From Chiloscyllium plagiosum (Eukaryota), in the NCBI RefSeq assembly GCF_004010195.1, contig NC_057719.1:27075623-27139622 (forward strand): a stretch of 64,000 nt of DNA, written 5' to 3'. How positions within the stretch are numbered: position 1 is the first letter of the stretch; each line of letters begins with the position of its first letter. A model generated the notes under the pieces. That model was not told the origin of the DNA, did not search any database, and saw nothing but the letters and a program-made list of their open reading frames with translations. Below are positions 6,243 to 63,574 of this stretch, piece by piece. The translations under genes and the position numbers were made by a program.

Positions 6243-7565
6243 TTCCAGAATTTCAGGAAGGTAACTACACTTGTGGGCCACGGCCAGTAAGAGACAGTGC
6301 TTCTCCCTACAGTGACTTGCCCCCAATGCCAGAGAGTGAGTCTTGCTCACTGCTTAGAGAGGTTTACAAATATTTCCAATACTTAGCAATTTTCGAAGCC
6401 TATTATAGCCTAAGGGTGCAGACCAATATATAATTTTTTAAACACCATCATTGTTGAAGGGCCAGTAGATGTGTCTGAACTAGACTCCCACAACAGAGTC
6501 ACCATGAAGCTGTTATCATTTCCTGTAACATGAAAATGCCTCCCAAGTTTCCAATTCAGAGGAGAATTATCTATTAGCACAGAGAGATAAATACTAAGGG
6601 GTCCTCATGTAACACAGCTAATGTTTGGTAATGATGTCATGTTTTAAAGGTTAAATCCTGACTAAAATCTGCTCCAGTCATTAAATTTACGAATATATAC
6701 AGATATTTTCTTTCAATTTTCTACAATTTTACTTCTTTCATGGTATATGAACACAGCCAGTATTTGTTGTCCATCACTGATTTCCCCTGAGAAGATGATG
6801 GTTACTTTCTTAAATCATTACCTTCTGTATAATGTAGCTATACAGATAAAATAACAAAAAATAATTGGTGCCTGAAATATTTCCTTTGACTGAAAGAATG
6901 GACTGGAATTTAGTGTGTGATATGGAGGAATTATGTTAGTACTGGGGGATGGTAACCAAAGATAATTCAATTTCCCCAATTTGGTCATAGTTATTGTTCA
7001 ATGTTAGCATTTACACAATTATCTCACCAATTATACTGCTGTGGCATGGTTCTACTTATACATGTTAATGATCCATTTATGTCTTGAGGTAGTTACTGCC
7101 GATCTCAAATTAAAAATAAGGAGGAAATTAGAACAACTGTTAATTTGGATGATATTGAGTTGTCATATCAACAGAATAGGTCCTGTCAAGTTCCTGCTTT
7201 CTTCCAGTCATGCAAGGAAAGGTTGCTGAGTGAAAAGTGTTAGTTAAATATTTTTATCTGTATTCACAGTGTGCATGTATAATACACATCTTTTTCATTC
7301 TGTTTTAATTTTGCGGAATTGTTATGTTATTCTTAAAATGATATCCACATAGAATTTTTTTGACCTCATCATGCTCTTGCTCTTGCACTGTCACCTGACC
7401 TGGTTAAAGGAAAGCCATGTTACACAGGTTTTGTGGCACCCTATCCATTGTGTAGGGTTTCCAGTACAGTTTCAATCATAACAAAGCCTTAAATGTATTG
7501 CAATGTAAAAGACATACAAGAAGTTAAACTGACAGTCAATTGGTCATGCAGAACTTAAACATGGT

Positions 7566-7879
7566 TGAAAAATGACACACTCAATTGCATCTGTCTTGAA
7601 CTTATCAGGACAATTTGCAAGAATACCACTTCAAGTGGAAACCCAACATTTAAATTCTGCAAGAAAGGAGAGTGTTGATTAGTTGGTAGGTGGATTCTGA
7701 TTGGTTGTCATGGAGAATGCATAATTCCTCTACCAATCACAGTCCACTTCTCAACCAATCAACATTCACCTCTCTTGTTATATATAAATGTTGGTTTTTC
7801 CCTTGAATTGATGCTGTTGCCAATTGTCCCGAAAAGTGCAAGATGACAAGCTTTCACAGAATGTGTGTGTCTTTTTTCA
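7566..7879. repeat. Old fold-back (inverted-repeat) element of HHR family C
   Basis: Left arm gtcttgaacttatcaggacaatttgcaagaatacc...gattggt pairs imperfectly with right arm accaatc...ttgccaattgtcccgaaaagtgcaagatgac; homologous to 57426 and 58588. Confidence 0.7.
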
Positions 7880-9779
7880 GAAATGCTTAAAATAACTGAG
7901 TCAAGTGTGTGTCCAAAGTTCTAACAATTGTGAATCTATGTTTTAAGGTTCATTGCACAGAACATTTCTGAACTTTAAAAAAAAGATTTTTAAAGGCATT
8001 TTTTATGAGAAAATATATTAATTTAATCTGAAAATAGAGCAATATGCAGTTTTATCATTTGTGGTGTGTAAGCTTTTTTACACCTGTGTTTGAAACAAAT
8101 GAATAGCGAGAGTTCTGATACAGTTTTGTGTCAAGCATCATCAAGTCTTGCCACTCCAGTCAGAGAGAATAGTTGTGCTCAAAGCTGATTAGGCAGAAGG
8201 TTTTTTTTCATACCTTTAAAAGCTTTAAGTACAACTTTAATTATTGTTTGTCCCCTGAGGAACTGAGTCCACTGTACATTTTGACATATTTCGGTGGTGC
8301 AGAGTGAAGCACAGCTAAGGTGGCAGTTAGCTCTGTACAATAGCATTCTCCATCCAGTCTGCCAACATGCTGAATCCAGACAAAGAGCCTTTTGTCAATT
8401 GAAATGCAAAGAAAGCAGCTGTCTAAGCACTCACAATGAATATTCTGCCTCCCCAACTCCTGACTGGAACCAAAACGGAGCTGCTGGCTCCAAATTAATC
8501 ATTAAGATGCAGACGAATCATTAGATTAATTGCTAAAGGGTCCATACCTACAATTTTAACTTGTCGGTTATCTACATTGATTCTAACTAATTTGCTGAGT
8601 GTTAACAGCATTTTCTGTTTTTTTTTGTTTATTTGCAACTTTCAAGTTTTATGCTATTTGTTTATCTTTTGGACTTAAAGTATCTCCACTTGGGGGGCTA
8701 CCATGATGATAAAGAGCTATGATGCATGACTGTTAAGCTACATGCAGTGAACTCCTCCACATGTGCCCTCACAATGTGAATATAGCAAAGGTGTTTGGCA
8801 GTTTCTGTGATGTGACTGCAGGTAACTGGTGCCTTGACAGCATCCTGCTTTTAAAATCAAGCCTTTGACGCTTGGCTGCTGAGAATGACTAATTGGTTGG
8901 TCATTGGTGAATGGATCCTGCTGCTGATTCAGTTTTAAATATCACTCAGTGTATCCCTGTGCTAGAGTTCTAATTGTCCTGGTTTCCAGATGTTTGAAAT
9001 AATCACATTTGAGATTGGATAGATGAGAGATCATTTTATTTAATACTTGCCATTTTGCCTTGTACAAAAGAACAGGCTTGTGCTGGTCCTGTAACTTTCT
9101 AGTGCTGCTTTGACTATGATTCCTGAATTATTTCCAATCTCTGTATGGATAATACGATTTATAACATTGCATCATTTTTTAAAAAGTAATGTCCAATCAG
9201 TGTAACTATTCCAGTCATGGATTTTATTAAATGTGGAGTTGGAAGAGGGAGACTTCATGTCATGGTCCATTTTGGAACCATGGTCCATTTTATTTGCGTT
9301 TGGAGTGATGTCCTCTGAGTAGAATTTCAAAACTTAAGTTGTAAATTAAAATGGAGAACCTTAATTGTAATCTATTCTGGACTGTTACGTGAGCCATACA
9401 CCAATTGGCAGAGGGTCACTTATTTTACAGAATTAAATTTATAATTAAAGAGTGGTGTGGCAAGAATGGGTTTCACTTCACGGAACACTGGCATCAGTAT
9501 TCAGGGAAGCATGCATAGCAATTGGTTCCTCTTGAACTTGCTGAGGCTAGTATCCTGGTCAATCATATATCTCAGGCTATGGACAGGAATTTAAATTAAC
9601 ATAGGATGCTTACCGTGAAGGGAGATTTCAGAATTCAAAGCAAAAGCTCAAAGTGTTAGATCCATATAGTGATGTGGGTAAAGGTAAGTAAAGTGAGACA
9701 GAAAAGAGATGAACAAAAAAATGTACATCAATGTATAAGGTCATTACAGGTAAGAAAGCTAAAAAGAAAAGTAATTGTA

Positions 9780-10900
9780 GATTCTTTAGCTAAATCCAAG
9801 AAGGATTTGCAATGAATTAAATAAACCAGTGACAAAACTAAAGGTAATGATTTAATTCCAATCACAATCACAGAGACATGGTTTCAAGGTGATCAAAGAT
9901 CGGAAATGAGCATTCCAAGCTAAATAGGATTGTGGAGAGACTGGCAGAATGGCAAAGGAGGCTGGATAATCCATTGCGGAAACGTTCCGCAATGTTTCAG
10001 AGAATACCTCTGGGACACCCGGACCAACCAACCCAACCACCCCGTGGCTCAACACTTCAACTCCCGCTCCCACTCCACCAAGGACATGCAGGTCCTTGGA
10101 CTCCTCCATCGCCAGACCATAGCAACACGACGGCTGGAGGAAGAGCGCCTCATCTTCCGCCTAGGAACCCTCCAACCACAAGGGATGAATTCAGATTTCT
10201 CCAGTTTTCTCATTTCCCCTCCCCCCACCTTGTCTCAGTCAAATCCCTCAAACTCAGCACCGCCCTCCTAACCTGCAATCTTCCTCCTGACCTCTCCGCC
10301 CCCACCCCCACTCCAGCCTATAGCATTCCCAATGCCCCTCCCCCAAGTCCCTCCTCCGTACCTTTTATCTTAGCCTGCTGGACACACTTTCCTCATTCCT
10401 GAAGAAGGGCTCATGCCCGAATCATCAATTCTCCTGCTACTTGGATGCTGCCTGACCTGCTGCGCTTTTCCAGCAACACATTATCAGCTCTGATCTACAG
10501 CATCTACAGTCCTCACTTTCTCCAGGAATATATATAGAAATATATACATTTGCTAATAATACAAAGCTATCTGGAAATGTAAGCAGTAGGAGGAAGGATA
10601 CAAAGAGGTTGGAGACAGATATTGACAGGTTAAGTGAATGGGCAACAAGATGACAGATGGATTATAATGCAGAGAATTGTGACGTTTTACACTTTGGTCA
10701 TAATTATAGTAATGCAGAATATTTATTAAGAGGTGTGAAATTTGATTTCAGAGAGACTTGGATGTGCTTGTGCAAGGAACACAGAAAGGCAGCATGCAGC
10801 TATGGTAAGCAGTCATATAATAATGTTAGCCTTTATTGCAAAGGTTTGGGCAATGGAAATAAAATAGTCTTATTCCAGTATTACAGTGTTTTGATGCGAA
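9780..10900 (+). mobile_element. Old degenerate CR1 LINE remnants (endonuclease and RT parts) flanking a PLE insertion
   Basis: ITETWFQGD-like sequence at ~9865; MDYNAENCDVLHFG at 10657. Confidence 0.7.
9972..10524 (+). mobile_element. 5'-truncated Penelope-like element (GIY-YIG C-terminus plus pLTR)
   Basis: FREYLWDTRTNQPNHPVAQHFNS...RRLEEERLIFRLGTLQPQGMN; degenerate HHR ctgaaga-agggctcatgccc-gaat-catc at ~10399-10427; ends gtcctcactttctcc. Confidence 0.88.
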
Positions 10901-10924: not shown

Positions 10925-10955
10925 CTGAGGAAGAGTCACTGGACCCGAAAAGTTA
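10925..10955 (+). ncRNA. Minimal hammerhead ribozyme motif, family B (start of a ~140-bp pLTR-like repeat running to ~11060)
   Basis: CTGAGGA-A-GAGTC-ACTG-GACCC-GAAA-AGTTA; core boxes intact, helix II 4 of 5 pairs. Confidence 0.6.
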
Positions 10956-19640: not shown

Positions 19641-20492
19641 ATACTTCATTACGTACTTTAGCAGCTCACATCTCTGACAGTGGGACTGCCAATTTTTCAG
19701 TGTTGGACAGCCTCCTGTTGATCCTCCAGATTCAACAGCAAATTAGCAGGCTACCTCTGGGAAAATAGATTAATTGGTCTGTGCTCCTGGCAATCCAGGC
19801 TCAGCATTCCCATTTTGTCCTGACTTTGGTGTTGCAAAGACCGTGGGAAAGTTCTGCCCAATGCAGTTAGAAATTTCTCCCACACGTTCAAATGCCGTAA
19901 GTGAGATTACAGCAAATGTTTAAAATACACTCAAAAGTAGATATTATCTGTGAAGAGAAAAGCTACTAATATTTCAGCAGTAACTCATCAGACATGAATG
20001 CTGAAAGACAAACAGATGTATTGCTGAAAGAAACAGCAGGTGCTTCCATCTCAAAAGAAATGGTGAATAGATGAAATGATAGGGAATCAATTTAAAAAAT
20101 GAAAGCAGGCCTATCAAGGTGGTGAAACTAAATGTGATACTTACATAAGTAAAAGATTTGAGTTGTATTTGGTAAAGATCAATGATGAGGTAAGTGTATT
20201 CTCCTTGCTGATTTTGCAGCTTTTGATAGAATCATCCCTAAGAATCACATTGAGCAGATGTTGGGTCAGTATGGTTTGGCTTGAGTGAGAGCAGGCACAA
20301 TGTAGATTCAGTTCCGATAGAGCCGACTGCCACAGTTGATGTTGGCCGGTATTGCTTTAGCCAATTTAAAGGCAAATAGATGTTTAACTGTTTTGAATAG
20401 AAGAGCTTAAATGGTAATGGACCCATATTTGAAGTTACATACAAAGTTATTTTTAGTTGCCAGGAGTTTGGAAGACTTTATTTAATTTACGT

Positions 20493-21329: not shown

Positions 21330-22372
21330 TTGATTTAATTGATTATTGTCAATTTTCATGCAGTACAGGCAGATTACAGGGGTAATAAAACAGAGCAAAG
21401 AATGTAATGTTACGGCTGCAGGAAAGGTGCAAAGAGCAATGTCAGCATTAAATTTGAAGTTTGAGAGGTCTATTCAGAAGTCTAATAACAGAGGGGAAGA
21501 AGCTGTTCTTGAATCTGTTGGTATGTGTGTTTAGGCTTTTATATTTTCTGCCGACAGAAGAGATTGGAAAAGACAAAGAGCAATGTCAGCATTAAATTTG
21601 AAGTTTGAGAGGTCTATTCAGAAGTCTAATAACAGAGGGGAAGAAGCTGTTCTTGAATCTGTTGTTATGTGTGTTTAGGCTTTTAATATCTTCTGCCCGA
21701 CAGAAGAGATTGGAAAAGATTATAACTGGGATGGAGGGGGTCTTTGATTATGTTGGTTGCCCTTTTAAGGCAACAAGGAGTATAGGAGGAGTCAGTGGAT
21801 GGAAGGTTGGCTTGCATGATGGACTGAGCTATGCTGACAGCTCTCTGTAATTTCTTACTGTTGGGCAGAGAAGTTGCTGTACAAAGCAATGATGCAATCA
21901 GATAGAATGCTTTCTATGGTGCATCTATAAAAATTGGTTAAGAGATTTTACAGACATGCCGAATTTCCTTAGCATCCTGAGGAAGTGGAGGTGTTGTTGT
22001 GCTTTGTTAACCATCACAAAAAGGTAGGTGATCCAGGACAGATTGTTGGTGATTGTGACTCCTAAGAACTTGACCCCCTCGGCCATCTCCACTTCAGCTC
22101 AATTGCTGTAGATAGGGGCATGCCTCCACCTTGCTTCCTGAAGTCAATGACCAGCTCTTTCATCTTACTGCTGTTGAGAGACAGGTTGTTATCTTCACAC
22201 CACGCCACTAAGCATTCTGTTTCTTTCCTGTATTCTGCCTCGTCATGATTTGAGATCCAGCCTACAACAGTGATATAATAGCAAATGTGTAGATGGAGTT
22301 AGGATGAAGTTTAGCCACATAGCCATGAATGTGCAAGGAGTCTGGTAAGGGGCTGAGTTCACATCCTTATGG
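21330..22372 (-). mobile_element. Rex1/Babar-clade LINE 3' fragment
   Basis: Minus strand gives degenerate P.GCELSPL...SIYTFA RT motifs near 22260-22370 and the C-terminus KLQRAVSIAQSI...IIKDPLHPSYNLFQSLLSGRRY, typical of Rex1/Babar ORFs. Confidence 0.8.
21430..21719. repeat. Tandem duplication of two ~145-bp units
   Basis: caaagagcaatgtcagc...gattggaaaaga at 21430-21573 and 21574-21719, differing by about 4 substitutions/indels. Confidence 0.92.
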
Positions 22373-24454: not shown

Positions 24455-24860
24455 AAAAACTTGGAGAGAAAGTAAAGTTTCAGGTCCAGTGACCCTTCTT
24501 CAGAGCTGGTTGTAACTAAGATAAAGGTGGTATATATGCTGAAGATGAGGTGGAGATGGAGCACAGGGCGAGAGAACAACAGTTGACCGTTACCCATTCC
24601 TTTGTCTGCCCAACTTTCTGTCCACAGATACTCGGAAAAACTAGGACTGCAGGTGCTGGAGAGTCAGAGTCAACAAGTGTAGCACTGGAAAAGCTCAGCA
24701 GGTCAGGCAGCATCCGAGGAGCAGGAGAGTCGATGTTATGGGCATAAGCCCTTCATCAGGAATGTGGAGGACCATTCCAAAGCAACCCATATTGTTGTGG
24801 GTCTGGAGTCTCCACAGATACTGCCAGACTTGCTGCGTTTCTCCAGCAATTTTCTTTCTA
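24455..24860. mobile_element. Inverted family-B pLTR-like element with a nested family-A pLTR insertion (24633-24810)
   Basis: 12-bp TSD tccacagatact at 24621-24632 and 24811-24822; minus-strand HHR motifs at 24473-24503 (family B) and 24730-24759 (family A, GAAA mutated). Confidence 0.75.
24473..24503 (-). ncRNA. Minimal hammerhead ribozyme motif, family B
   Basis: Minus strand CTGAAGA-A-GGGTC-ACTG-GACCT-GAAA-CTTTA; both core boxes intact, 5-bp helix II with one G-U pair. Confidence 0.6.
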
Positions 24861-36104: not shown

Positions 36105-39100
36105 TGTTCATTAAAGACCTGGAAAATATTCTTCTGCATTCAGTTAAGTTAATTGTAGTTTTAAGTCTGTCCAAGATAAAGGCTGCAGTAGTAAGTATAG
36201 TGGATTCTTTCTTGATTATATGTTTTTGGAGATAAGTCTCTTGATTAAACTTAAAATATAAGCCATAGCTATTAATTTAACCTGGGGCAGTGTTTGTAGA
36301 GGAATAAGACGGTGTTATTTTCTGGGTCTGTAGATTGTGAAGGAGCAAAAATGGCCTTTGCAGTGATATGTACTTCTTGTCAGATGTGGGACTTTAAAGA
36401 GAGTTTAAGAGTTACTGCAGATTATATCTGCCATAACCGCTGTTGGATGCGAATCTTATCAGATCGAGTGGATTGGTTGGAGAGATAGATAGGAGCAATG
36501 AGGAATTTGCAACTGCAACAGTATGTGATGGATGGCAGATATAGGAAGGGGGAAAGTCTCAGATACAGTCACACAGATGGGTTAACTCCAGGAAAGGTAA
36601 GCGAGGTAGGCAGCTAGTGCAGGAGTCTTTTGTGGATATACCCATTTCAAACAGGAATGCTGTTTTGGAAAATGTAGGGGGTGATGGATTCTCAGGGGAA
36701 CGTAGCACGAACAACCAAGTTTCTGGTATTGAGACTAGCTCTAATGCAACGAGGGGTATGTCGGCTTCCAAGAGACCAATTGTGTTAGGGGATTCTGTAG
36801 TCAGAAGTACAGACAGAAGTTTCTGTGGCCAGTAGAGAAAAAGCAGAAGGGTGTGTTGTTTCCCTGGTGCCAGGATCAAGGATGTCTCAGAGAGGGTGCA
36901 GTATGTTCTCTCGGGGGAGAGGGGCCAGTAGGAGGTCATTGTCCACATTGAAACCAACGACATTGGAAGGGAAAAGGTTGAGACTCTGAAGGGAGGTTAC
37001 AGAGAGTTAGGCAGAAATTTAAAAAGGAGGTCCTCAAGGATAGTAATATCTGGATTACTCCCAGTGCTACGAGCTAGTGAGGGCAGGAATAGGAGGATAG
37101 AGCAGATGAATGCATGGCTGAGGAGCTGGTGTATGGGAGAAAGATTCACATTTTTGGATCATTGGAATCTCTTTTGGAGGAGAAGTGACCTGTACAAGAA
37201 GGACGGATTGCACCTAAATTGGAAGGGGACTAATATACTGCCAGGGAAATTTGCCTGGAACTGCTTGGGAGGATTTAAACTAGTAAGGTGGCGGGGGGGA
37301 GGTGGTGAGGAAAGAGATCGATCTGAGACAGGTACAGCTGAGAACAGAAGTGAGTCAAACAGTCATGGCAGGCAGGGATAAGGTAGGACTAATAAATTGA
37401 ACTGCATTTATTTTAATGCAAGGGTCCTAACAGGGAAGGCAGATGAACTCAGGGCATGGTTAGGAACATGGGACTGGGATATCATAGCAATTACGGAAAC
37501 ATGGCTCAGGGATGGGCAGGATTGGCAGCTTAATGTTCCAGGATACAAATGCTACAGGAAGGATAGAAAGGGAGGTAAGAGAGGAGGGGGAGTGGCATTT
37601 TTGATAAGGGATAGCATTACAGCTGTGCTGAGGGAGGATATTCCCAGAAATACATCCAGGGAAGTTATTTGGGTGGAACTGAGAAATAATAAAGGGATGA
37701 TCACCTTATTGGGATTGTATTATAGACCCCCCAATAGTCAGAGGAAAATTGAGAAACAAACTTGTAAGGAGATGTCAGCTATCTGTAAGAATAATAGGGT
37801 AGTTATAGTAGGGAATTTTAACTTTCTAAACATTGACTGGGACTGCCATAGTGTTAAAGGTTTAGATGGAGAGGAATTTCTTAAGTGTGTACCATAATTT
37901 TATTTGTTTTAAAATAGTGATGGAAAAGGATAGACCAGATCTAAAAGTTGAAGTTCTAAATTGGAGAAAGGCCAATTTTGATGGTATTAGGCAAGAATTT
38001 CCGAAAGCTGATTGGAGGCAGATGTTCGCAGGTAAAGGGATGGCTGGAAAATGGGAAGCCTTCAGAAATGAGATAACAAGAATCCAGAGAAAGTATATTC
38101 CTGTTAGGGTGAAAGGGAAGGCTGGTAGGTATAGGGAATGCTGGATGACTAAAGAACCTGAGCGTTTGGTTAAGAAAAAGAAGGAAGCATATGTCAGGTA
38201 TAGACAATATAGATCGAGTGAATCCTTAGAAGAGTATAAAGAAAGTAGTAGTGTATTTAAGAGGGAAATCAGGAGGGCAAAACGGGGACATGAGATAGCT
38301 TTGGCAAATAGAATTAAGGAGAATCTAAAGGGTGTTTATAAATATATTAGGGACAAAAGGGTAACTAAGGAGAGAATAGGGCCCCTCAAAGATCAGCAAG
38401 GTGGCCTTTGTGTGTAGCCACAGAAAATGGGGGAGATACTAAATGAATATTTTGCATCAGTATTTACTGTGGAAAAGGATATGGAAGATATAGACTGTAG
38501 GGAAATAGATGGTAACATCTTGCAAAATGTCCAGATTACAGAGGAGGAAGTGGTGAATGCCTTGAAACGGTTAAAGGTGGATAAATCCCGAGGATCTGAT
38601 CAGGTGTACCCCGAACTCTGTGGGAAGCTAGAGAAGTGATGGCTGGGCCTCTTGATGAGATATTTGCAACATCGTTAGTCACAGGTGAGGTGCTGGAAGA
38701 CTGGAGGTTGGCAAACATGGTGCCAATGTTTAAGAATGGCAGTAAAGACAAGCCAGGGAACTATAGACCGGTGAGCCTGACCTCGGTGGTGGGCAAGTTG
38801 TTGGAGGGATTCCTGAGGGACAGGATGTACATGTATTTGGAAAGGCAAGGACTGATTAAGGATAGTCAACATGGCTTTGTGCGTGGGAAATCATGTCTCA
38901 CAAACTTGATTGAGTTTTTTGAAGAAGTAACAAAGAAGATTGATGATGGCACAGCAGTAGATGTGTTCTGTATGGACTTCAGTGAGGTGTTCGACAAGGT
39001 TCCCCATGGGAGACTGATTAGCAAGGTTAGATCTCATGGAATACAAGGAGAACTAGCCATTTGGATACAGAACTGGCTCAAAGGTAGAAGACAGAGGGTG

Positions 39101-39856
39101 GTGGTGGAGGATTGTTTTTCAGACTGGAGGCCTGTGACCATTGGAATGCCACAAGGATCGGTGCAGGGCCCTCTACTTTTTGTCATTTACATAAATAGTT
39201 TGGATGCGAGCATAAGAGGTACAGTTAGTAAGTTTGCAGATGACACCAAAATTGGAGGTGTAGTGGACAGCGAAGAGGGTTACCTCAGATTACAACAGGA
39301 TCTGGACCAGATGGGCCAATGGGCTGAGAAGTGGCAGATGGAGTTTAATTCAGATAAATGCGAGGNNNNNNNNNNNNNNNNNNNNNNNNNNNNNNNNNNN
39401 NNNNNNNNNNNNNNNNNNNNNNNNNNNNNNNNNNNNNNNNNNNNNNNNNNNNNNNNNNNNNNNNNNNNNNNNNNNNNNNNNNNNNNNNNNNNNNNNNNNN
39501 NNNNNNNNNNNAAATTATGAGGGGCATGGATAGGATAAATAGACAAAGTCTTTTCCCTGGGTTCGGGGAGTCCAGAAATAGAGGGCATAGGTTTAGGGTG
39601 AGAGGGGAAAGATATAAAAGAGACCTAAGGGACAACTTTTTCACACAGAGGGTGGTACGTGTATGGAATGAGCTGCCAGAGGCTGTGGTGGAGGCTGGTA
39701 CAATTGCAACATTTAAGAGGGTATTTGAATAGGAAGGGTTTGGAGGGACATGGGCCAGGTACTGGCAGGTGGACCTAGATTGGGTTGGGATATCTAGTCG
39801 GCATGGACGGATTGGACCGAAGGGTCTGTTTCCATGCTGTACATCTCTATGACTGT
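36105..39856 (+). mobile_element. Near full-length, inactivated CR1 (HER1-type) LINE: 5' UTR, ORF1, ORF2, tail
   Basis: ORF1 from ATG 36351 (CTSC...IC zinc-finger-like; GDSVV, HIETND, DGLHLN SGNH-esterase motifs). ORF2 from ~37397 (YFNAR, IIAITETW, YRPP endonuclease; PQGS, FADDTK RT). Stops, frameshifts, an internal deletion near 37892 and an N-gap; 5' boundary approximate. Confidence 0.93.
39366..39511. other. Assembly gap (146 N)
   Basis: Run of N. Confidence 1.
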
Positions 39857-45779: not shown

Positions 45780-48700
45780 ATTACATAAGTAGAGATGGCT
45801 GGACAGGTGATGTGCGTTAGCTCTATGATGTGGGGGCTGGCTGATCCCATTGTGAATGGCAGTGACCACATTTGCAGCCAGTGTTGGTTGCTGCAAGAAC
45901 TCTGGATCAGAGTTGATGATCTGGAATCTGAGCTTCAAACACTGCGGCACATCCGGGAGGGGGAGAGTTACCTGGACACTTTGTTTCAGGAGGCAGTCAC
46001 ACCCGGTAGATTAAGTAATTCAAATTCAGTTAGTGATCAGGAACAACAGGGTGTGACTGTAGGTGAGGTGGGTAGGGAGATTCTGAGTTCAGGAGTGCAG
46101 CACCTTGTCCAACAGATATGAGATTTTTGTTCCCTGTATGGATGAGGGAAAGGGCTGTGGACAGGATGAGCCAGCTGACCACAGCACCATGGGGCAGTAG
46201 GTCATTCAAGAGGGGGGAGCAAAAAGACCAATAGTTGTTATAGGGGATTCTATAATTAGGGGGACAGATAGTATCCTTTGTGAGCTGGATTGGGAGTCCC
46301 GCATGGTATGTTGCCTGCCCAGTGCAGGACACCTCCGACTGGCTTGAAAGGAAATTGGAGTGGGAGGGAGAGTATCCAGTTGTTGTGGTCCATGTTGGCA
46401 CAAACAACATAGGCAAGGCGAGGAAGGAGGACCTGTTTGGGGAGTATCAAGCACCAGGAAGGAAATTGAAGAACAGGGCCTCGAGGGTCATAATCTCTGG
46501 ATTACTGCCCAAGACGCGTGCTAATTGGCACAGGGATAAGAAAATTAGGGAAGTAAACACATGGCTAAGAGATTGGTGTGGGAACGAGGGATTCCACTTC
46601 ATGGGGCATTGGCATCAGTTTTGGAACCGGGGGGATCTGTACCGGTGGGACGGTCTCCACCTGAACTGATCTGGATCCAGTGTTCTGGTGAAAAGGATAA
46701 ATAGGGTGGTCACTGGGACTTTAAACTTGTGAGTTGGGGGGAAGGGAAAAGGAAAGTAACAGGGAATATGGAGTTAAGTAAAAGGATAAATGAGTGCAGG
46801 GTTTAAGTTCGAAGCAGGCTAGGAATGAAGCAAAAAGGAAGGATAACTTAGGACATACTACTACAGGTGATGGAATTATCATTAAGGTGCTTTACCTGAA
46901 TGCTCGTAGTACTCATAACAAAGTAGATGAATTAACGGCACAAATCATCGTGATTATGATGTGGTAGGCATCACAGTGACATGGTTCAGGACTGGTAGTT
47001 AAACATCCAAGGATTTACAACTTATCGAAAAGACCTGGAGGTGGGCAGAAGGGGCGGGGTTGCCTTGTTAGTTGAGAATGAAATTAAATTTATGGCAGTG
47101 AATGACATAGGGTCAGATGTTGTGGAGTCTGTGTGGGTGAACTTGAGGAACCACAAAGGCGAAAAATCCATAATGGGAGTTATGTGCAAACTTCCCAGCA
47201 GTGGTCAGGACCAGGGGTGCAAGATGTGCCAGGAAATAGATAGGGCATGTCAGAAAGGCAAGTTCACGGTGATCATGGGGAACTTCAATATGCAGGTGAA
47301 TAATGAGTGAATAATGTTGCCAGTGGATCCAAAGAAACGGAATTCATGGAATGTTTACAGGATGGCTTTTTGGAACAGCTTCTGATGGAGCCCACAAGGG
47401 AACAGGCTATTCTGGTCTTGGTGCTATGTAATGGGTCAGACTTTAGAAAAGATCTTAAAGTAAGGGAACACTTAGGAGGCAGCGATCATAATATGGTAAC
47501 AGTTCAGCCTGTAGTTTGAAAGAGAGAAGGCAAAATTGGATGTAATGGTGTTACAGTTACATAATGGTAATTATAAGGGCATGAGAGAGGAGCTGATGAG
47601 AATCAACTGGAAGCAGAGCCTAGTGTGGAAGACAGTACAACAACAATGGTAGGAGACACAGTAAAGAGGTTCATCCCAAAGAAAAGAAACATTCTTCGGA
47701 AGGGAATTAGACAGCCATGGCTGACAAAGGAAGTCAGGAAATGTATCAAAGAAAACGAGAGAGCCTATAAGTGGCCGAGAGTTACTGAGAAATCAGAAGA
47801 TTGGGAAGACTACAAAAACAAACAAATTAACAAAGAGAGAAATAAGGAAGGAGAGGATCAAATATGAAGGTAAGCTAGCCAGTAATATTAGAAATGATAG
47901 TAAAAGTTTCTTTCAATACATAAGAAACAAACAAGAGGCAAAAGTAGAAATTGGGCTGCTCCAAATTGATGCAGGAAGGTTAGTGATGGAAGATAAGGGA
48001 ATAGCTGAAGAACTTAATAAATACTTTGTGTCAGTCTTCACAGTGGAAGACGTGTAATATCCCAACAATTAAGGAGAGTCAAGGGGCAGGGTTCAGTATG
48101 GTAGCCAATACAAAACAGGAAGTGCTAGAAAAGCTGAAAAGTCTAAAAATTGAAGAATCTCCTGGCCCTGATGGGCTACATCCTAGAGTTCTGAGGGAGG
48201 TAGCTGAAGAAATAACGGAGCCGTTGGTTGTAATCTTTCAAAAATCACTGGAGTCAGGGAAAGTCACAGATGATTGGAAAATTGCCATTGTAACCCCCTT
48301 GTTCAAGAAAAGATCAAGACAAAAGATGGAAAATTATCGGCCGATTAGCCTAACCTCGGTTGTAGGTAAAATTCTAGAATCCATCGTTAAGGAAGTGCAG
48401 AGTCAGATTAGAACAAGTCAGCATGGATTTATAAGGGGAGGTCGTATCTGACAAACCTTTCAGAATTCTTTGAAGAGGTAACAAGTAGGTTAAACCAGGG
48501 AAACCTAGACTTCCAAAAGGCCTTTGATAAGGTGCCTCACATAAGGCTGCTGAGTAAGGTGAGGGCCCATGGTGTTCGAGGTGAGCTACTGGCATGGATT
48601 GAGAACTGGCTGTCTGACAGAGGCAGAGAGTTGGGATAAAAGGATCTTTTTTGGAATGGCAGCTAGTGACAAGTGGTGTCCTGGACGGTTCAGTGTTAGG

Positions 48701-48864: not shown

Positions 48865-48961
48865 GGGTAAAAACTACGACCGCAGATGCTGGAAACCAGA
48901 TTCTGGATTAATGGTGCTGGAAGAGCACAGCAGTTCAGGCAGCATCCAAGGAGCAGCGAAA

Positions 48962-48993
48962 TCGACATTTCAGGCAAAAGCCCCTCATCAGGA
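48962..48993 (-). ncRNA. Minimal hammerhead ribozyme motif, family A, intact core
   Basis: TC-CTGATGA-G-GGGC-TTTT-GCCT-GAAA-T-GTC-GA. Confidence 0.72.
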
Positions 48994-49238
48994 ATAAAGG
49001 CAGGTGAGCCTGAAGTGTGGAGAGATAAGCTAGAGGAGGGTGGGGGTTGGGAGAAAGTAGCATAGAGTACAATAGGTGAGTGGGGGAGGGGATGAAGGTG
49101 ATAGGTCAGGGAGGAGAGGGTGGAGTGGATAGGTGGAAAAGGAGATAGGCAGGTAGGACAAGTCCGGACAAGTCATGGGGACAGTGCTGAGCTGGAAATT
49201 TAGAACTAGGGTGAGGTGGGGGAAGGGAAAATGAGGAA

Positions 49239-50020
49239 NNNNNNNNNNNNNNNNNNNNNNNNNNNNNNNNNNNNNNNNNNNNNNNNNNNNNNNNNNNNNN
49301 NNNNNNNNNNNNNNNNNNNNNNNNNNNNNNNNNNNNNNNNNNNNNNNNNNNNNNNNNNNNNNNNNNNNNNNNNNNNNNNNNNNNNNNNNNNNNNNNNNNN
49401 NNNNNNNNNNNNNNNNNNNNNNNNNNNNNNNNNNNNNNNNNNNNNNNNNNNNNNNNNNNNNNNNNNNNNNNNNNNNNNNNNNNNNNNNNNNNNNNNNNNN
49501 NNNNNNNNNNNNNNNNNNNNNNNNNNNNNNNNNNNNNNNNNNNNNNNNNNNNNNNNNNNNNNNNNNNNNNNNNNNNNNNNNNNNNNNNNNNNNNNNNNNN
49601 NNNNNNNNNNNNNNNNNNNNNNNNNNNNNNNNNNNNNNNNNNNNNNNNNNNNNNNNNNNNNNNNNNNNNNNNNNNNNNNNNNNNNNNNNNNNNNNNNNNN
49701 NNNNNNNNNNNNNNNNNNNNNNNNNNNNNNNNNNNNNNNNNNNNNNNNNNNNNNNNNNNNNNNNNNNNNNNNNNNNNNNNNNNNNNNNNNNNNNNNNNNN
49801 NNNNNNNNNNNNNNNNNNNNNNNNNNNNNNNNNNNNNNNNNNNNNNNNNNNNNNNNNNNNNNNNNNNNNNNNNNNNNNNNNNNNNNNNNNNNNNNNNNNN
49901 NNNNNNNNNNNNNNNNNNNNNNNNNNNNNNNNNNNNNNNNNNNNNNNNNNNNNNNNNNNNNNNNNNNNNNNNNNNNNNNNNNNNNNNNNNNNNNNNNNNN
50001 NNNNNNNNNNNNNNNNNNNN
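49239..50020. other. Assembly gap (782 N)
   Basis: Run of N. Confidence 1.
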
Positions 50021-50489
50021 ACGAATGAGTGTGTTGGTGGAAGGGTACTGTTGGGGACGTCTGGAGAGGAAAAAAACGGAGGGTTTGGAGGCCCTGGTCA
50101 TGGCGGATGGAGGTGTAAGGGATTGGATATCCATGGTGAAGATGAGGTGTTGGGGGCTAGGGAAACGGAAGTCTTGGAGGAGGTGGATGGCGTGGGTGGT
50201 GTCTCGAACGTATGTGGGGAGTTCCAGGACTAAGGGGGATAGGACAGTGTCGAGGTAGGTAGAGATGAGTTCAGTGGGGCAGGAGCATGCTGAGACAATG
50301 GGTCGGCCAGGGTGGTCAGGCTTGTGGATCTTGGGAAGGAGGTAGAACCGGGCAGTGCGGGGTTCCCGGACTATGAGGTTGGAAGCTGTGGGTGGGAGAT
50401 CTCCTGAGGTGATGAGGTTGTGTATGGTCTGGGAGATGATGATTTGGTGATTTGGGGTGGGGTCATGGTCGAGGGGGCAGTAGGAGAGT

Positions 50490-57425: not shown

Positions 57426-57900
57426 TGATAAAAAAACAAACAAACCTGTATTCATAATTGTCAAAGCTTTTTGTCTTGTGTTCATCAGGACAGACACAAG
57501 AATGCCATCTTTCACAGGGATCAATAATTTATTCTGCATGAGAAAAAGTTGCTAACTGGTTGGAAAGTGGACTCTGGCTGGTTAAGGCATTGCCACAGAA
57601 AATGTATAAAGATGGCTACTCCAAAGCTTTGCTTACATTAAGAAAAGCACAATGTCTCTGACTGGTTGAGACATTTCATGGGGATTGCACCAGAGGACAA
57701 AGACCCCTAAGCTTTTGTTTAATTGTAAAAGTGAAATGCCTGGAGATTTTTTTTTGTGCCAAGGATAGATTCCTCCATGTGTCTCTATGTAGCTTCTTTC
57801 AAATACAGGTGAGTCATATTGTAAGCTTGACAGATAATCTTAAGTTAATTATTAATATAATTCTTGGCAAACTTGGGATTGTTGAGTGGTGTTGTTGAAC
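57426..57900 (-). repeat. HHR family C repeat copy
   Basis: Minus strand TGTC-CTGATGA-ACACAAGAC-AAAA-AGCT-TT-GACA at 57459-57492; adjacent sequence homologous to 7590-7720 and 58600-58760; far boundary approximate. Confidence 0.6.
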
Positions 57901-58600
57901 ACTAGACAACATAACACCAAGGCAGATAATAAATTGTTGCTTGAGTTGTTACTAACAAACATCAAGGTAAAATAGATGAAGCATGTCTCCATTTTACAGG
58001 GTTATACGTAAGCCTCCATTAGCTTTACAAAAATCAGTGTTTTCTGTAATATTTACATTTGTTAAGTAAAAATAAAAGAGTCTATAGGTAGAATTCACAT
58101 TAGAGGGGAAACCATTCTGTCTGAAAGTGGTCCTTTGTGAGAAAAATCCACAATAGATTCCATTAACATGCACCATCCTAAAGCCTTGTACTTTACATTG
58201 TGAATGCTTATCCAAACCAATTATCTCAAGTACTCATCTATATTAGGAATTGCAGTAAAATTAATTAGAAATTATTAAGGATTTTCATGTACTTTAAATA
58301 TATCTGATATTTTGCTTTCACTCAATAAACTTTAAAATGCTGTGCAGCAAATAACTATGATATAAAAGCAAAAGGTGCTGGACATGCACAGCAGTAAAAC
58401 AATGGGAGTAAATACATTTCCAACAATTTGAATGAGACTCACCCTCAGAATGTAGATGCTGATAGCATTTTGTATTTTCTTAGTATTTTCAATTTTCACT
58501 TCAGGAATGATGTCCAACATTCAGTTTTTCAAGAATAGTGGTTAAAATGTTAAAGAATAACCTTAGTTTATGAATGTTTCATTAATTATTGAAAAAAAAC

Positions 58601-58642
58601 ATTTTGTCAATGCTTTTCATCTTGCACTCATCAGGACAAAAT
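58601..58642 (-). ncRNA. Minimal hammerhead ribozyme motif, family C (within a repeat copy at ~58588-58900)
   Basis: Minus strand ATTTTGTC-CTGATGA-GTGCAAGAT-GAAA-AGCA-TT-GACAAAAT: perfect 8-bp helix I closing intact CUGAUGA and GAAA boxes. Confidence 0.68.
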
Positions 58643-60412
58643 TCATAAGAAATACCAATGTAAAGGAAACACAACATTTGTACAGCATGAGATGGGAATG
58701 CTGATTTGTTGGCAAGTGCATTCTGTTTGGTAAATATGTCCCCATAAGGAATGAACCAGTTAGATGATGACTGACAGTTAATTGTCAAACTTTGTTTACA
58801 TTTTAAACGTGGTGTGTTCTTTGATACCGATTGGTAAAGGCATTTTCCAGAGGAATGAACCTGAGAATGTTTGTTACCTATTTTATTAAGTTGAAACAGT
58901 TGGAATGTGTGAGCATGTTTTTGTGCCTGAAAAGAACATCATCCTGTGTATTAATGTTTACGCATAAGTGCATCTTACTGCATGCCCAACCAACTGTCAC
59001 AAATTGGATGCCAGCAAAATAATTTGAGTGCAAGGCGAAAGACAATGACAAAATGTGTATTCTTTTTTCCAACGATACCCAAGTTCTGTAGTACCAAATG
59101 ACAATTTTTTTTTCCCAATGTTTATAGTGAGGTCTGACATTAATTGCCATATTTGAGGTATCAATAGTTACATGATCGATAACTACACTATTACTATCCA
59201 TACTTTTCTGTATAAAATTTACAACTAATAAATATTTTAGTTGGCTCTGATTTCTCCTACTATTCTGTTCCAGAACTCAGTCATGCCTTGCTAAGCCGCA
59301 AGAGATATTAAAGTAACTAAAGGCAGAAGCAACTAATTGTGGTACTTGATGCATAATTTTAACAAAGCTTTTGATAGTTGATAGAAATGAAACTTAAATT
59401 CCCCTGAAGCTATTTAAATCTCCCCCAAAGAATGAATTTAATTAATTAGCCTCTGGGTTCAGATTTGTCCATTATAAAAGATATATTAATATTGTCTTTT
59501 GTCGGAGATCTGGTGCATGCATATATTCCACATTGTACAGTGTTCTAAAATGACTTGCACATCAAATTAAATTCTTGGCAGAATCATTGGCTTGCTACAT
59601 TATTTCATTAAACATCTGACTAAGTTTAGCAGCCACCCCTATTGAATTTGTAGCTTGTCTTTTGTTCAACATTTCATTCAAGATATCCAGGCAGGACTGT
59701 CATCTTTGTACATGAATCTCTTGATGTTACAAGGCAGTACTTGTGAATTTTTTTTTTACTGTGACCCAATTTTGAGGCTTGACAATTGACATGATACCCC
59801 GAGGAGAACCAGGTCCTGTTAGAGTGGGAATACCATCATTCTAACCGGTCACAGCTCCACAGTAGTCATTTCTGTCTCAGGGCTTGTGACCCCAACCTTT
59901 CAGCTCATGACCCTGCTTAGGTTCCAAAACTCCATTTCAGGAAGCCCTGATGTAAATATTTTTCCATCAATCAAGTATCAACATTACATTCCTAAGTGGA
60001 GTGCATATTGGCTCTCAAACTGCATAACGTAGGGCAGTAAATATAGTTTGCCTTTACTTATTTTACTGACTCCAGTGTGAATTGCCTTTTACCAGCAAAA
60101 TGTATCCACTGGGTAATACATAATAGAACACAGAGAAAATCAGAGTTCACATACATTATACATGTTTTTATATTGAGAAAATATATTTAAAATAGAGCTA
60201 GCTCACCTTTGATACCAGCCGGCGCAGCAGTAACTTCTAATGATTTGGGACCTGTAGTTCTAGATTATATTTTCAAACAATTGCTTTCTTTTTCTGCTGT
60301 GTACAAACCTGTCATAATCTTTCCAGCTTCTCAAACCTAACCTTGTAGCTAAATTCACTCATCCCTGCAGCAATTCTGGTAAGTCTCCTCCAAGACCCTC
60401 ACATCCCTCCTA

Positions 60413-60643
60413 AGGAGAAAGTGAGGAGTGCAGATGCTGGGGATCAAAGGGAAAGAGTGTGGTGTTGGAAAAGCACAGCCAGTCAGTCAGCATCTGAGGA
60501 GCAGGAGAATTGATGTTTCAGGCATAAACCCTTCATCAAGAATGAGCCTCATTCCTGATGAAGGGCTTATGCCTGAAACATCGATTCTCCTGTTCCTCAG
60601 ATGCTGCCTGACTGAATGTGATTTTCCAGCACCACAGTCTTTA
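60413..60643. mobile_element. Fold-back pLTR-only insertion (family A) with HHRs back-to-back at the apex
   Basis: Arms ~60459-60546 and 60548-60635 with a 1-nt loop at 60547; probable 12-bp TSD acatccctccta (60401-60412) / atatccttccta (60644-60655). Confidence 0.85.
60552..60584 (+). ncRNA. Minimal hammerhead ribozyme motif, family A, intact core boxes
   Basis: TTC-CTGATGA-A-GGGC-TTAT-GCCT-GAAA-C-ATC-GA. Confidence 0.68.
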
Positions 60644-62792: not shown

Positions 62793-63444
62793 GGCAGTAT
62801 CCAAGGAGCAGGAGAATCGACGTTTTGGGCATGAGCCCTTCTTCAGGAATGCAGACAGGACCGTATCGAGGTGAGTTCGGTGGGGCAGGAGCAGGCTGAG
62901 ACAATGGATCGGCCGGGGCAGTCAGATTTGTGGATTTTGGGCAGGAGGTAGAAACGGGTGGTGCTGGGTTGTGGGACTATGAGGTTGGAGGCGGTGGATG
63001 GGAGATCCCCTGAGGTGATGAGGTTATGGATGGTCTGGAAGATGATAGTTTGGTGGTGGGAGGTGGGGTCATGGTCAAGGGGGCAGTAGAAGGAGGTGTC
63101 CGCGAGCTGGCGTTTAGCCTCAGCGGTGTATAGGTCGGTGCGCCAAACTACTACCGCGCCTCCCTTGTCTGCCGGTTTGATAGTGAGGTTGGGATTGGAA
63201 TGGAGGGAGTGGAGGGCTGCACGTTCCAAGGGTGAGAGGTTGGAGTGGGTAAGAGGGGTGGAGAGGTTGAGGCGGTTAATGTCGCGGCGGCAGTTGGCTA
63301 TGAAGAGATCGAGGGCATTCCTGAAGAAGGGCTCATGCCCGAAATGTCGATTCTCCTGCTCCTTGGATGCTGCCTGACCTGCTGCGCTTTTCCAGCAACA
63401 CATTTTCAGCTCTGATCTCCAGCATCTGCAGTCCTCACTTTCTC
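62793..63444. mobile_element. Rearranged Penelope-like insertion: inverted pLTR + antisense RT fragment + pLTR
   Basis: Minus-strand ORF piece ALDLFIANCRRDI...IKPADKGGAVVVW...FYLLPKIHK...GRSIVS (62853-63314); 18-bp TSD cactgccgcagt(t/g)agtca at 62775-62792 and 63445-63462. Confidence 0.9.
63317..63350 (+). ncRNA. Minimal hammerhead ribozyme motif, family A, intact core
   Basis: ATTC-CTGAAGA-A-GGGC-TCAT-GCCC-GAAA-T-GTC-GA. Confidence 0.72.
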
Positions 63445-63574
63445 CACTGCCGCAGTGAGTCAAGGGTGTGGTCCTATTTCTCTCAAAAGTGTTAGCCATC
63501 ATCAGTCAGGCATTTGCGGGTGTATGGGGATCTGCGAGTTTCCTGCCCAAGTCATGGGCCATGGTTAGTCTTGC

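Follow-up and report, generated by a model that had tools for sequence, protein, structure and literature searches.

An old family of decayed type I hammerheads of probable Penelope-like element origin in Chiloscyllium plagiosum

Hammerheads of Penelope-like elements

Hammerhead ribozymes in the ends of Penelope-like elements (PLEs) were described in 2014 (Cervera and de la Pena, PMC4209133). In that account PLE hammerheads are slow in vitro, and helix II has at least 3 bp in all 56 motifs, most of which carry an extra base after CUGANGA. None of these 56 motifs comes from a cartilaginous fish, and a 6-nt helix III palindrome occurs in the rows for Drosophila virilis, Oikopleura, and Marsupenaeus (PMC4209133). 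A 2020 review portrays PLE hammerheads as lacking helix III or tertiary loop contacts (PMC7761336). Cleavage by the hammerhead of an anole PLE is reported to need protein, the tail of that element marks the start of reverse transcription, and insertion in vitro did not require ribozyme cleavage (Frangieh et al., 2024, PMC11167929). Hallmarks given for PLE insertions are an inverted, 5′-truncated copy beside the 5′ end and a tail that follows the repeat (Craig et al., 2021, PMC8557442). Penelope elements are described from the whale shark (PMC8455134), and PLE-derived retrozymes have been reported in one cartilaginous fish (preprint, 10.64898/2026.07.22.740005). Among hammerheads generally, pseudoknots are described in all three types, and one natural ribozyme, whose stem II has 1 bp and whose 6-bp pseudoknot is required, cleaves at more than 1.2 per minute (PMC3088659, 2011, Figure 4).

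The DNA analyzed here, called the window, is a 64-kb stretch of the genome of C. plagiosum. It holds five copies (A to E) of a repeat whose hammerhead resembles those of the 2014 account in being type I with a 4-5-bp helix I, G10.1-C11.1, a palindromic helix III, and U-rich flanks, and also in arrangement, since PLE hammerheads are mostly solo or opposite-strand copies 100-700 bp apart (PMC4209133). The family differs from the 2014 PLE min-HHR consensus in helix II, which falls short of the 3 bp found there. The insertions are also like the Penelope/Poseidon EN+ insertions, which show 5′ truncation and, at the C-terminus, a GIY-YIG that precedes pLTR and hammerhead (PMC8557442; Frangieh et al., 2024, PMC11167929).

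The family motif was absent from the full texts searched and from the supplements of PMC4209133 (one file), PMC8557442, and PMC3088659 (11 files). The A-E family, and even the layout of its hammerhead, may already be catalogued. Small variants of PLE hammerheads were reportedly treated by Lunse et al. in 2017. Topic searches of the literature, with that work, Repbase, and Dfam outside their scope, returned no description of the layout.

The hammerhead of copy A

The best-preserved hammerhead lies on the minus strand, exactly as the original prediction had quoted it. Its parts are:

58601-58642, minus strand: hammerhead of copy A, decayed type I, core boxes intact, sequence read directly
58642-58635, minus strand: 5′ strand of helix I
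58634-58628, minus strand: CUGAUGA box
58618-58615, minus strand: GAAA box
58609, minus strand: position 17
58608-58601, minus strand: 3′ strand of helix I

Copy A thus has CUGANGA, GAAA, the UH core, and helices I and III, as expected of a type I hammerhead, and the predicted cut falls between 58609 and 58608. Only one site in the window has the 20-nt core, and a match with at most three mismatches arose in 2 of 100 shuffles. An Rfam search of the window with E up to 5 gave five weak matches, none of them a hammerhead, and single-strand folding neither produced the hammerhead fold nor gave significant stability (z -1.75 to 1.44). The defects of copy A are the change of C11.1 to U, a U at position 17, and a helix III that exists only as a dimer palindrome, here AAGCAT with one mismatch. 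Judged by this decay, copy A is probably inert today.

The perfect 8-bp helix I that had been proposed does pair in copy A (duplex -7.0 kcal/mol); as a property of the family it does not hold. Helix I of the A-E family has about 5 bp, copies C and D reading AATTGTC, and the 8 bp of copy A depend on two extra T that are private to it. At 58639, 205, 198, and 168 contigs (one figure for each of the three organisms introduced below) leave the alignment and continue without the extra T; the long helix I is therefore attributed to expansion of a T run.

Other ancestral features had been reconstructed by reversing CpG decay. At positions 11.1-12 this was justified: the five copies read CA, CA, TG, TG, and CG, a mixture that supports an ancestral CG. 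The AAGCTT palindrome of helix III is intact in two of the five copies (B and C). The UUC cleavage triplet finds no support in the window, as position 17 is T in 5/5 window copies, with opposite-strand CpG decay there in none; C stands at this position in two sequences from outside the window, L053 and L039, which are discussed below.

Copy A is the sole member of the five with both core boxes intact, which together with the 8-bp helix I might indicate that the host kept this ribozyme functional. Such exaptation is highly improbable: copy A no longer has C11.1, lacks one pair of helix III, and retains its upstream pairing only in part, and its long helix I reflects the T-run expansion. Orthologous contigs differ by ~2-4%, too little to gauge constraint on 40 nt.

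Copies, pLTR, and insertion structure

The three further copies that had been claimed are present, with blastn matches to copy A at 7731-7864 (E 2e-12), 7594-7705 (E 2.5e-11), and 57458-57585 (E 8e-5). The pLTR of copy A and the remaining copies are:

58643-58877, minus strand: pLTR of copy A, non-coding, with a ~110-nt internal sub-repeat that carries CCAAT-like boxes
57459-57718, minus strand: hammerhead (57459-57492) and pLTR of copy B; G10.1 and G12 mutated, AAGCTT intact
59025-59102, plus strand: copy E, an inverted 5′-truncated stub, head to head with copy A
7535-7890: foldback of copies D (7535-7723, minus strand) and C (7718-7890, plus strand), two 5′-truncated pLTR ends, head to head

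Pairwise identity among the copies is only 57-71% over ~124 aligned nt, so the family is old. Copies A and B are colinear, with 267 of 434 columns identical and a score of 126.5 against a shuffle maximum of 45. The sub-repeat of the pLTR is also shown by contig joints that skip 109-128 nt, and its CCAAT-like boxes might serve a promoter role, by analogy with the pLTR promoters reviewed in PMC6765202.

The extent first assigned to the repeat, 58588-58900, was too short. The unit of copy A reaches 59024, where the inverted stub begins, and this fifth copy (59025-59102, plus strand) had been missed. Copy E starts inside the CUGAUGA box and retains the tail together with the hammerhead's 3′ half; contig depth over it (59075-59101) is 304 against 15. 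The hammerhead cores of C and D are both broken, and the foldback that they form is seen as a self-inverted match over 7594-7843 (74%, E 4e-37). Head-to-head inverted 5′ copies therefore occur at two of the three loci, and opposite-strand joints are found in other contigs too. The ribozyme region is present in all five pieces, whereas the 5′ ends differ: E ends inside the core, C and D ~110 nt upstream of it, and A and B ~390-400 nt upstream. The tail is common to C, D, E, and 104-130 loose ends per species at 58599. Inspection of the copy flanks by eye identified no target-site duplications.

Endonuclease remnants upstream of the pLTR

The original prediction held that none of the copies has an RT or GIY-YIG remnant joined to it. 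This proved incorrect for the endonuclease, the C-terminus of which lies directly 5′ of copy B and, more weakly, of copy A:

57719-57886, minus strand: decayed PLE endonuclease C-terminus of copy B, a single frame that two internal stops interrupt before the terminal stop
58881-59024, minus strand: decayed GIY-YIG endonuclease C-terminus of copy A, 48 stop-free codons, ending at the inversion junction

The remnant of copy B lies on the ribozyme strand, and its terminal stop precedes the hammerhead by 230 nt. A PLE profile of 121 proteins, made from L053 (chosen for its similar ribozyme) and 120 relatives, matches 57746-57886 (minus strand) at profile positions 777-823 of 832 (iE 0.43). With an endonuclease-only profile the iE is 0.019, which makes the remnant the second locus among 3198 tiles, behind a GIY-YIG fragment at 2287. 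It scores 13.6 bits and above all 1851 window tiles; 0/1000 shuffles reach its score in either of two tests, and the best alignment falls within the last 100 aa in 58 of 67 full-length proteins. Weaker evidence attends copy A, where shuffles scored as high in 30/1000 cases by mean pairwise score and in 168/1000 by HMM (not significant), and 119 of 2625 window tiles reach its score. The frame of copy A nevertheless aligns to the same C-terminus as that of copy B with a 4-codon gap, colinear from 58957 down. Only the last 50-70 codons are left in the two copies, and the GIY-YIG motif itself is absent. The spacing from stop to ribozyme is 230 nt in copy B and 243 nt in copy A, compared with 193 nt in the intact L053.

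The remnant shows a likeness to the L053 group, where an LCxQK-type motif closes the endonuclease. It is unlike the other PLE endonuclease fragments of the window at 2302 and 9924, against which 40-189 of 500 shuffles score equally. Pairwise BLASTP of the copy B remnant against L053 gave nothing (E 2.6), and database protein searches with the remnant found no PLE (0/3 candidates in one search, three tandem-repeat proteins in others) and no named vertebrate relative; one such search returned 12 proteins, driven by the L053 row. Pfam, run on the 191 window ORFs of at least 70 aa without N, missed the remnant, and its RT, AP-endonuclease, and esterase matches in these 191 ORFs all lie far from the copies, with a few sub-threshold matches besides. 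No PLE reverse transcriptase was found at the copies, all of which are truncated before the RT region, and the 64-kb window holds no full ORF or full-length member of the A-E family.

Origin, abundance, and age

Copies A and B are best explained as the endonuclease end, pLTR, hammerhead, and tail of a 5′-truncated PLE. Along the minus strand the order is endonuclease C-terminus, stop, ~240 nt of pLTR, type I hammerhead, and tail; these parts and their order, like the inverted 5′ stub and the abundance, are direct observations. As in the 3′ ends of EN+ PLEs, C-terminal endonuclease codons stand directly before the pLTR on the same strand (in B, and weakly in A), the hammerhead lies in the pLTR ~200 nt past the stop and is followed by the tail, and an inverted 5′-truncated copy adjoins the insertion at two of three loci. 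It is thus very likely that the feature at copy A is the 3′ end of a 5′-truncated insertion of an old endonuclease-bearing PLE. From what is known of PLE biology, the RT-endonuclease of the element would have nicked the target DNA, and reverse transcription would have been primed in the tail, immediately 3′ of the ribozyme. An early halt in synthesis would presumably have been followed by the attachment of a second, inverted short copy to the 5′ end. While the ancestor was active, its hammerhead could have paired through the 6-nt palindrome of helix III and cut tandem precursor RNA in dimeric form (compare PMC4209133).

Three DNA runs (organisms A, B, and C), of which 84%, 94%, and 64% were read, were matched to 58400-59200 at 80% likeness. 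Contigs matching these 800 bp numbered 1969 in organism A, 1787 in B, and 1364 in C. Summed depth at 58616-58642 was 24321, 15786, and 10286 against 9-17 in the flanks; it is not a copy number and shows a dispersed repeat with more than 1000 matching contigs per run. Depth stays above background as far as ~58966 and rises again at 59048-59128. The outer flanks on both sides are covered by contigs of organisms B and C, as two pieces abutting at the hammerhead and with ~2-4% differences, so the insertion predates the split of B and C. The copy A insertion is at the same site in three related species, and the A-E family is an old, abundant dispersed repeat. In RNA, 0 reads fell on 58400-59200 among 8.3 million records, only 6% of one poly(A) single-cell run.

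The high abundance and the lack of a full ORF in the window could also fit a non-autonomous, retrozyme- or SINE-like derivative consisting of the last ~50 codons and pLTR of a PLE, which would have spread on its own, possibly via RNA circles. Copies A and B do both end within ~50-70 codons of the stop, and there is the precedent of PLE-derived retrozymes in one cartilaginous fish (10.64898/2026.07.22.740005). The non-LTR retrozymes of that preprint are likewise units of a few hundred bases with a type I hammerhead and PLE ancestry. However, they are head-to-tail tandems without coding sequence and are defined by tandem repeats (10.64898/2026.07.22.740005), whereas the copies here are solo or inverted and two have endonuclease codons: direct tandems occur at 0/3 window loci and a coding remnant at 2/3. 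The 5′ ends differ among the five pieces (in the core, at ~110 nt, and at ~390-400 nt), and depth falls from 24321 at the ribozyme to less than 90 beyond 58913, although depth also tracks local identity. A derivative of this kind is accordingly unlikely, and origin from an endonuclease-bearing PLE is preferred.

On this origin the original prediction fared unevenly. An old family of decayed type I hammerheads derived from a PLE was the right description. "Orphan", "retrozyme-like", and "non-autonomous" are wrong or unsupported, because an endonuclease remnant and a head-to-head inversion are each found at 2/3 loci and tandems at 0/3; the search for tandem hammerheads that had been proposed was thus negative at the three window loci. 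The novelty of the repeat had been said to lapse if it were the terminus of a known autonomous element. By its sequence it is in substance such a terminus, the matter of catalogues aside.

Helix II and a candidate pseudoknot

The 2-bp helix II that had been put forward is doubtful, because its second pair, 10.2-11.2, is not kept: the five copies have U-A, C-A, U-A, U-A, and U-G, and both L053 and L039 have A-A. Position 10.2 reads T, C, T, T, and T in the copies and A in L053, while its partner stays A in four of the five copies and in L053. Helix II has at most 1-2 bp, without an extra base, in 5/5 copies, L053, and L039. A single pair with a pseudoknot is probably the better description. The strand concerned in copy A is:

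58644-58650, minus strand: candidate pseudoknot strand of copy A, complementary to 7 nt at 58620-58626, with four contiguous Watson-Crick pairs left

G10.1 and C11.1 enclose 7 nt (TGCAAGA in A and C) whose complementary strand lies 8-10 nt upstream of the core. By hand count, Watson-Crick pairs between this strand and loop II number 7/7 in B, 6/7 in D, 5/7 in C, and 4/7 plus a wobble in A. At 58646, 24-26 contigs per species carry the pairing base, and the consensus of loose ends (80-205 contigs per row, three species) gives the sense strand as TCTTG-Y-R, at an agreement no better than 0.55-0.59.

Outside the window, contig collections were scanned for a core that has G10.1 and C11.1 separated by 7 nt and a helix III of 6 nt. 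Matches were found at no fewer than 3 viral and at least 119 metagenome loci, and are mostly chance. Among the 122 matches listed, a palindromic helix III occurs in 11 (~8 expected), at least six upstream Watson-Crick pairs in two (L053 and L108), and a PLE ORF in L053 alone, which has the same ribozyme layout as the window family. Positions 1-2972 of L053 are an intact PLE in a metagenome contig, with an 886-codon frame, a terminal repeat (1-147/2795-2941), and a hammerhead at ~259-289, shortly upstream of the first ATG. Relatives of the L053 group make up 1639 of 8000 scored candidates, and a relative of the protein with 47% identity carries the name of the coral Chrysogorgia stellata. Like Penelope/Poseidon, L053 is without the CX2-5CxxC linker; the window copies lack the corresponding region. 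Loci for the L053 protein numbered 0 in viral or genome contigs, and blastn gave no alignment between L053 DNA and the window. Scans for the exact motif yielded 0 loci in viral, metagenome, and prokaryote genome contigs. L029, a similar-looking layout match, was rejected since it lies inside a bacterial ORF. L046 and L052, two hammerhead-like motifs whose helix III is a 6-nt palindrome, lie in low-GC metagenome contigs that contain foldback repeats, and no PLE ORF was found beside either.

In L053, TCTAGC pairs with GCTAGA, and in the window family TCTTGC with GCAAGA; both give six pairs, with one U-A replaced by A-U. This is a single independent compensatory change, and chance alone gives six upstream pairs in 2.4% of L053-like stretches. 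The tested 1-bp case resembles the family in its very short stem II and in a 6-bp pseudoknot joining stems I and II; it differs in being a metagenome ribozyme treated in a type II section and not a type I, dimer-dependent PLE motif (PMC3088659). The comparison of copies with L053 inclines slightly toward a helix II of a single G-C pair, with loop II joined to the strand 5′ of helix I in a pseudoknot of 6-7 bp.

The same PLE origin would be compatible with a hammerhead that forms no pseudoknot, having instead either a 2-bp helix II with a 5-nt loop or an upstream hairpin that silences the ribozyme unless refolded by a partner or protein. Single-strand folding places A, B, and D in an upstream hairpin and not in a hammerhead, although the program is unable to display pseudoknots, and the anole PLE hammerhead is protein-dependent (PMC11167929). 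L039, a relative of L053, has lost the pairing (three contiguous pairs within 20 nt, four within 40 nt), and the upstream strand of L053 also resembles a 3′ splice site (U-rich, AG). The pairing suggests a pseudoknot from few sequences, and the double change in copy B may be the product of two independent CpG decays. Against these points, the second pair 10.2-11.2 is not kept across the five copies, L053, and L039, and a 1-bp stem II with a required 6-bp pseudoknot does make a fast natural ribozyme (PMC3088659, Figure 4). A hammerhead without the pseudoknot is therefore a serious possibility that falls somewhat short of an even chance.

If the pseudoknot is accepted, it might further be proposed that one PLE lineage, present in this vertebrate and in the unrelated host of L053, carries a distinct type I hammerhead in which helix II has 1 bp, the pseudoknot has 6-7 bp, and helix III is a 6-nt palindrome. 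Its built-in contact between I and II would then allow fast dimer cleavage without protein. This proposal is tentative and rather doubtful.

Other repeats of the window

The window is rich in LINE fragments and other hammerhead-like repeats. A second, younger family of minimal hammerheads occurs at 60452-60642, 63316-63446, 48869-48995, 2859-2987, 10394-10524, and 24634-24764. The first of these is an 89% palindrome, and several come after GIY-YIG fragments (2302-2676, 9924-10268). N-terminal fragments of PLE reverse transcriptase lie at 62846-63340 and 50060-50476, both on the minus strand; the former is head to head with the hammerhead stub at 63316-63446 (plus strand), another 5′ inversion. 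A third, decayed hammerhead-like set has a longer helix II (10925-10950, plus strand; 24478-24503 and 19972-19991, minus strand).

An inverted repeat at 50740-51002/51461-51723 (263 bp, 98.5% identity, ~460 bp between arms) is possibly a young DNA transposon or MITE. Inverted repeats at 21036-21115/22380-22459 (80 bp, 98.8%, ~1.3 kb apart) enclose a 145-bp tandem duplication (21430-21719) and possibly mark a young non-autonomous DNA element. LINE fragments with esterase, AP-endonuclease, and RT domains lie at 36932-37894 and 46256-46666, with RT also at 15.3, 22.4, 27.3, 30.7, 43.9, and 48.0 kb; we take these LINE fragments to be CR1/L2-like. Pfam recognized no host exons among the 191 window ORFs. 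N gaps span 39366-39511 and 49239-50020.

Implications

As an element, the A-E family is ordinary, PLE-end hammerheads and shark Penelope elements being already known. Its ribozyme bears on the question of what PLE hammerheads do, given their slow cleavage in vitro and insertion without cleavage. If a lineage with a pseudoknotted hammerhead does exist, its ribozyme would contrast with the slow PLE motifs assayed so far. Descriptors that demand a 3-bp helix II would miss the hammerhead of this lineage, and structure-based counts of animal hammerheads would then overlook a whole abundant class. A pseudoknot kept across such distant hosts would, in turn, argue for selection on cleavage rate in the lineage.
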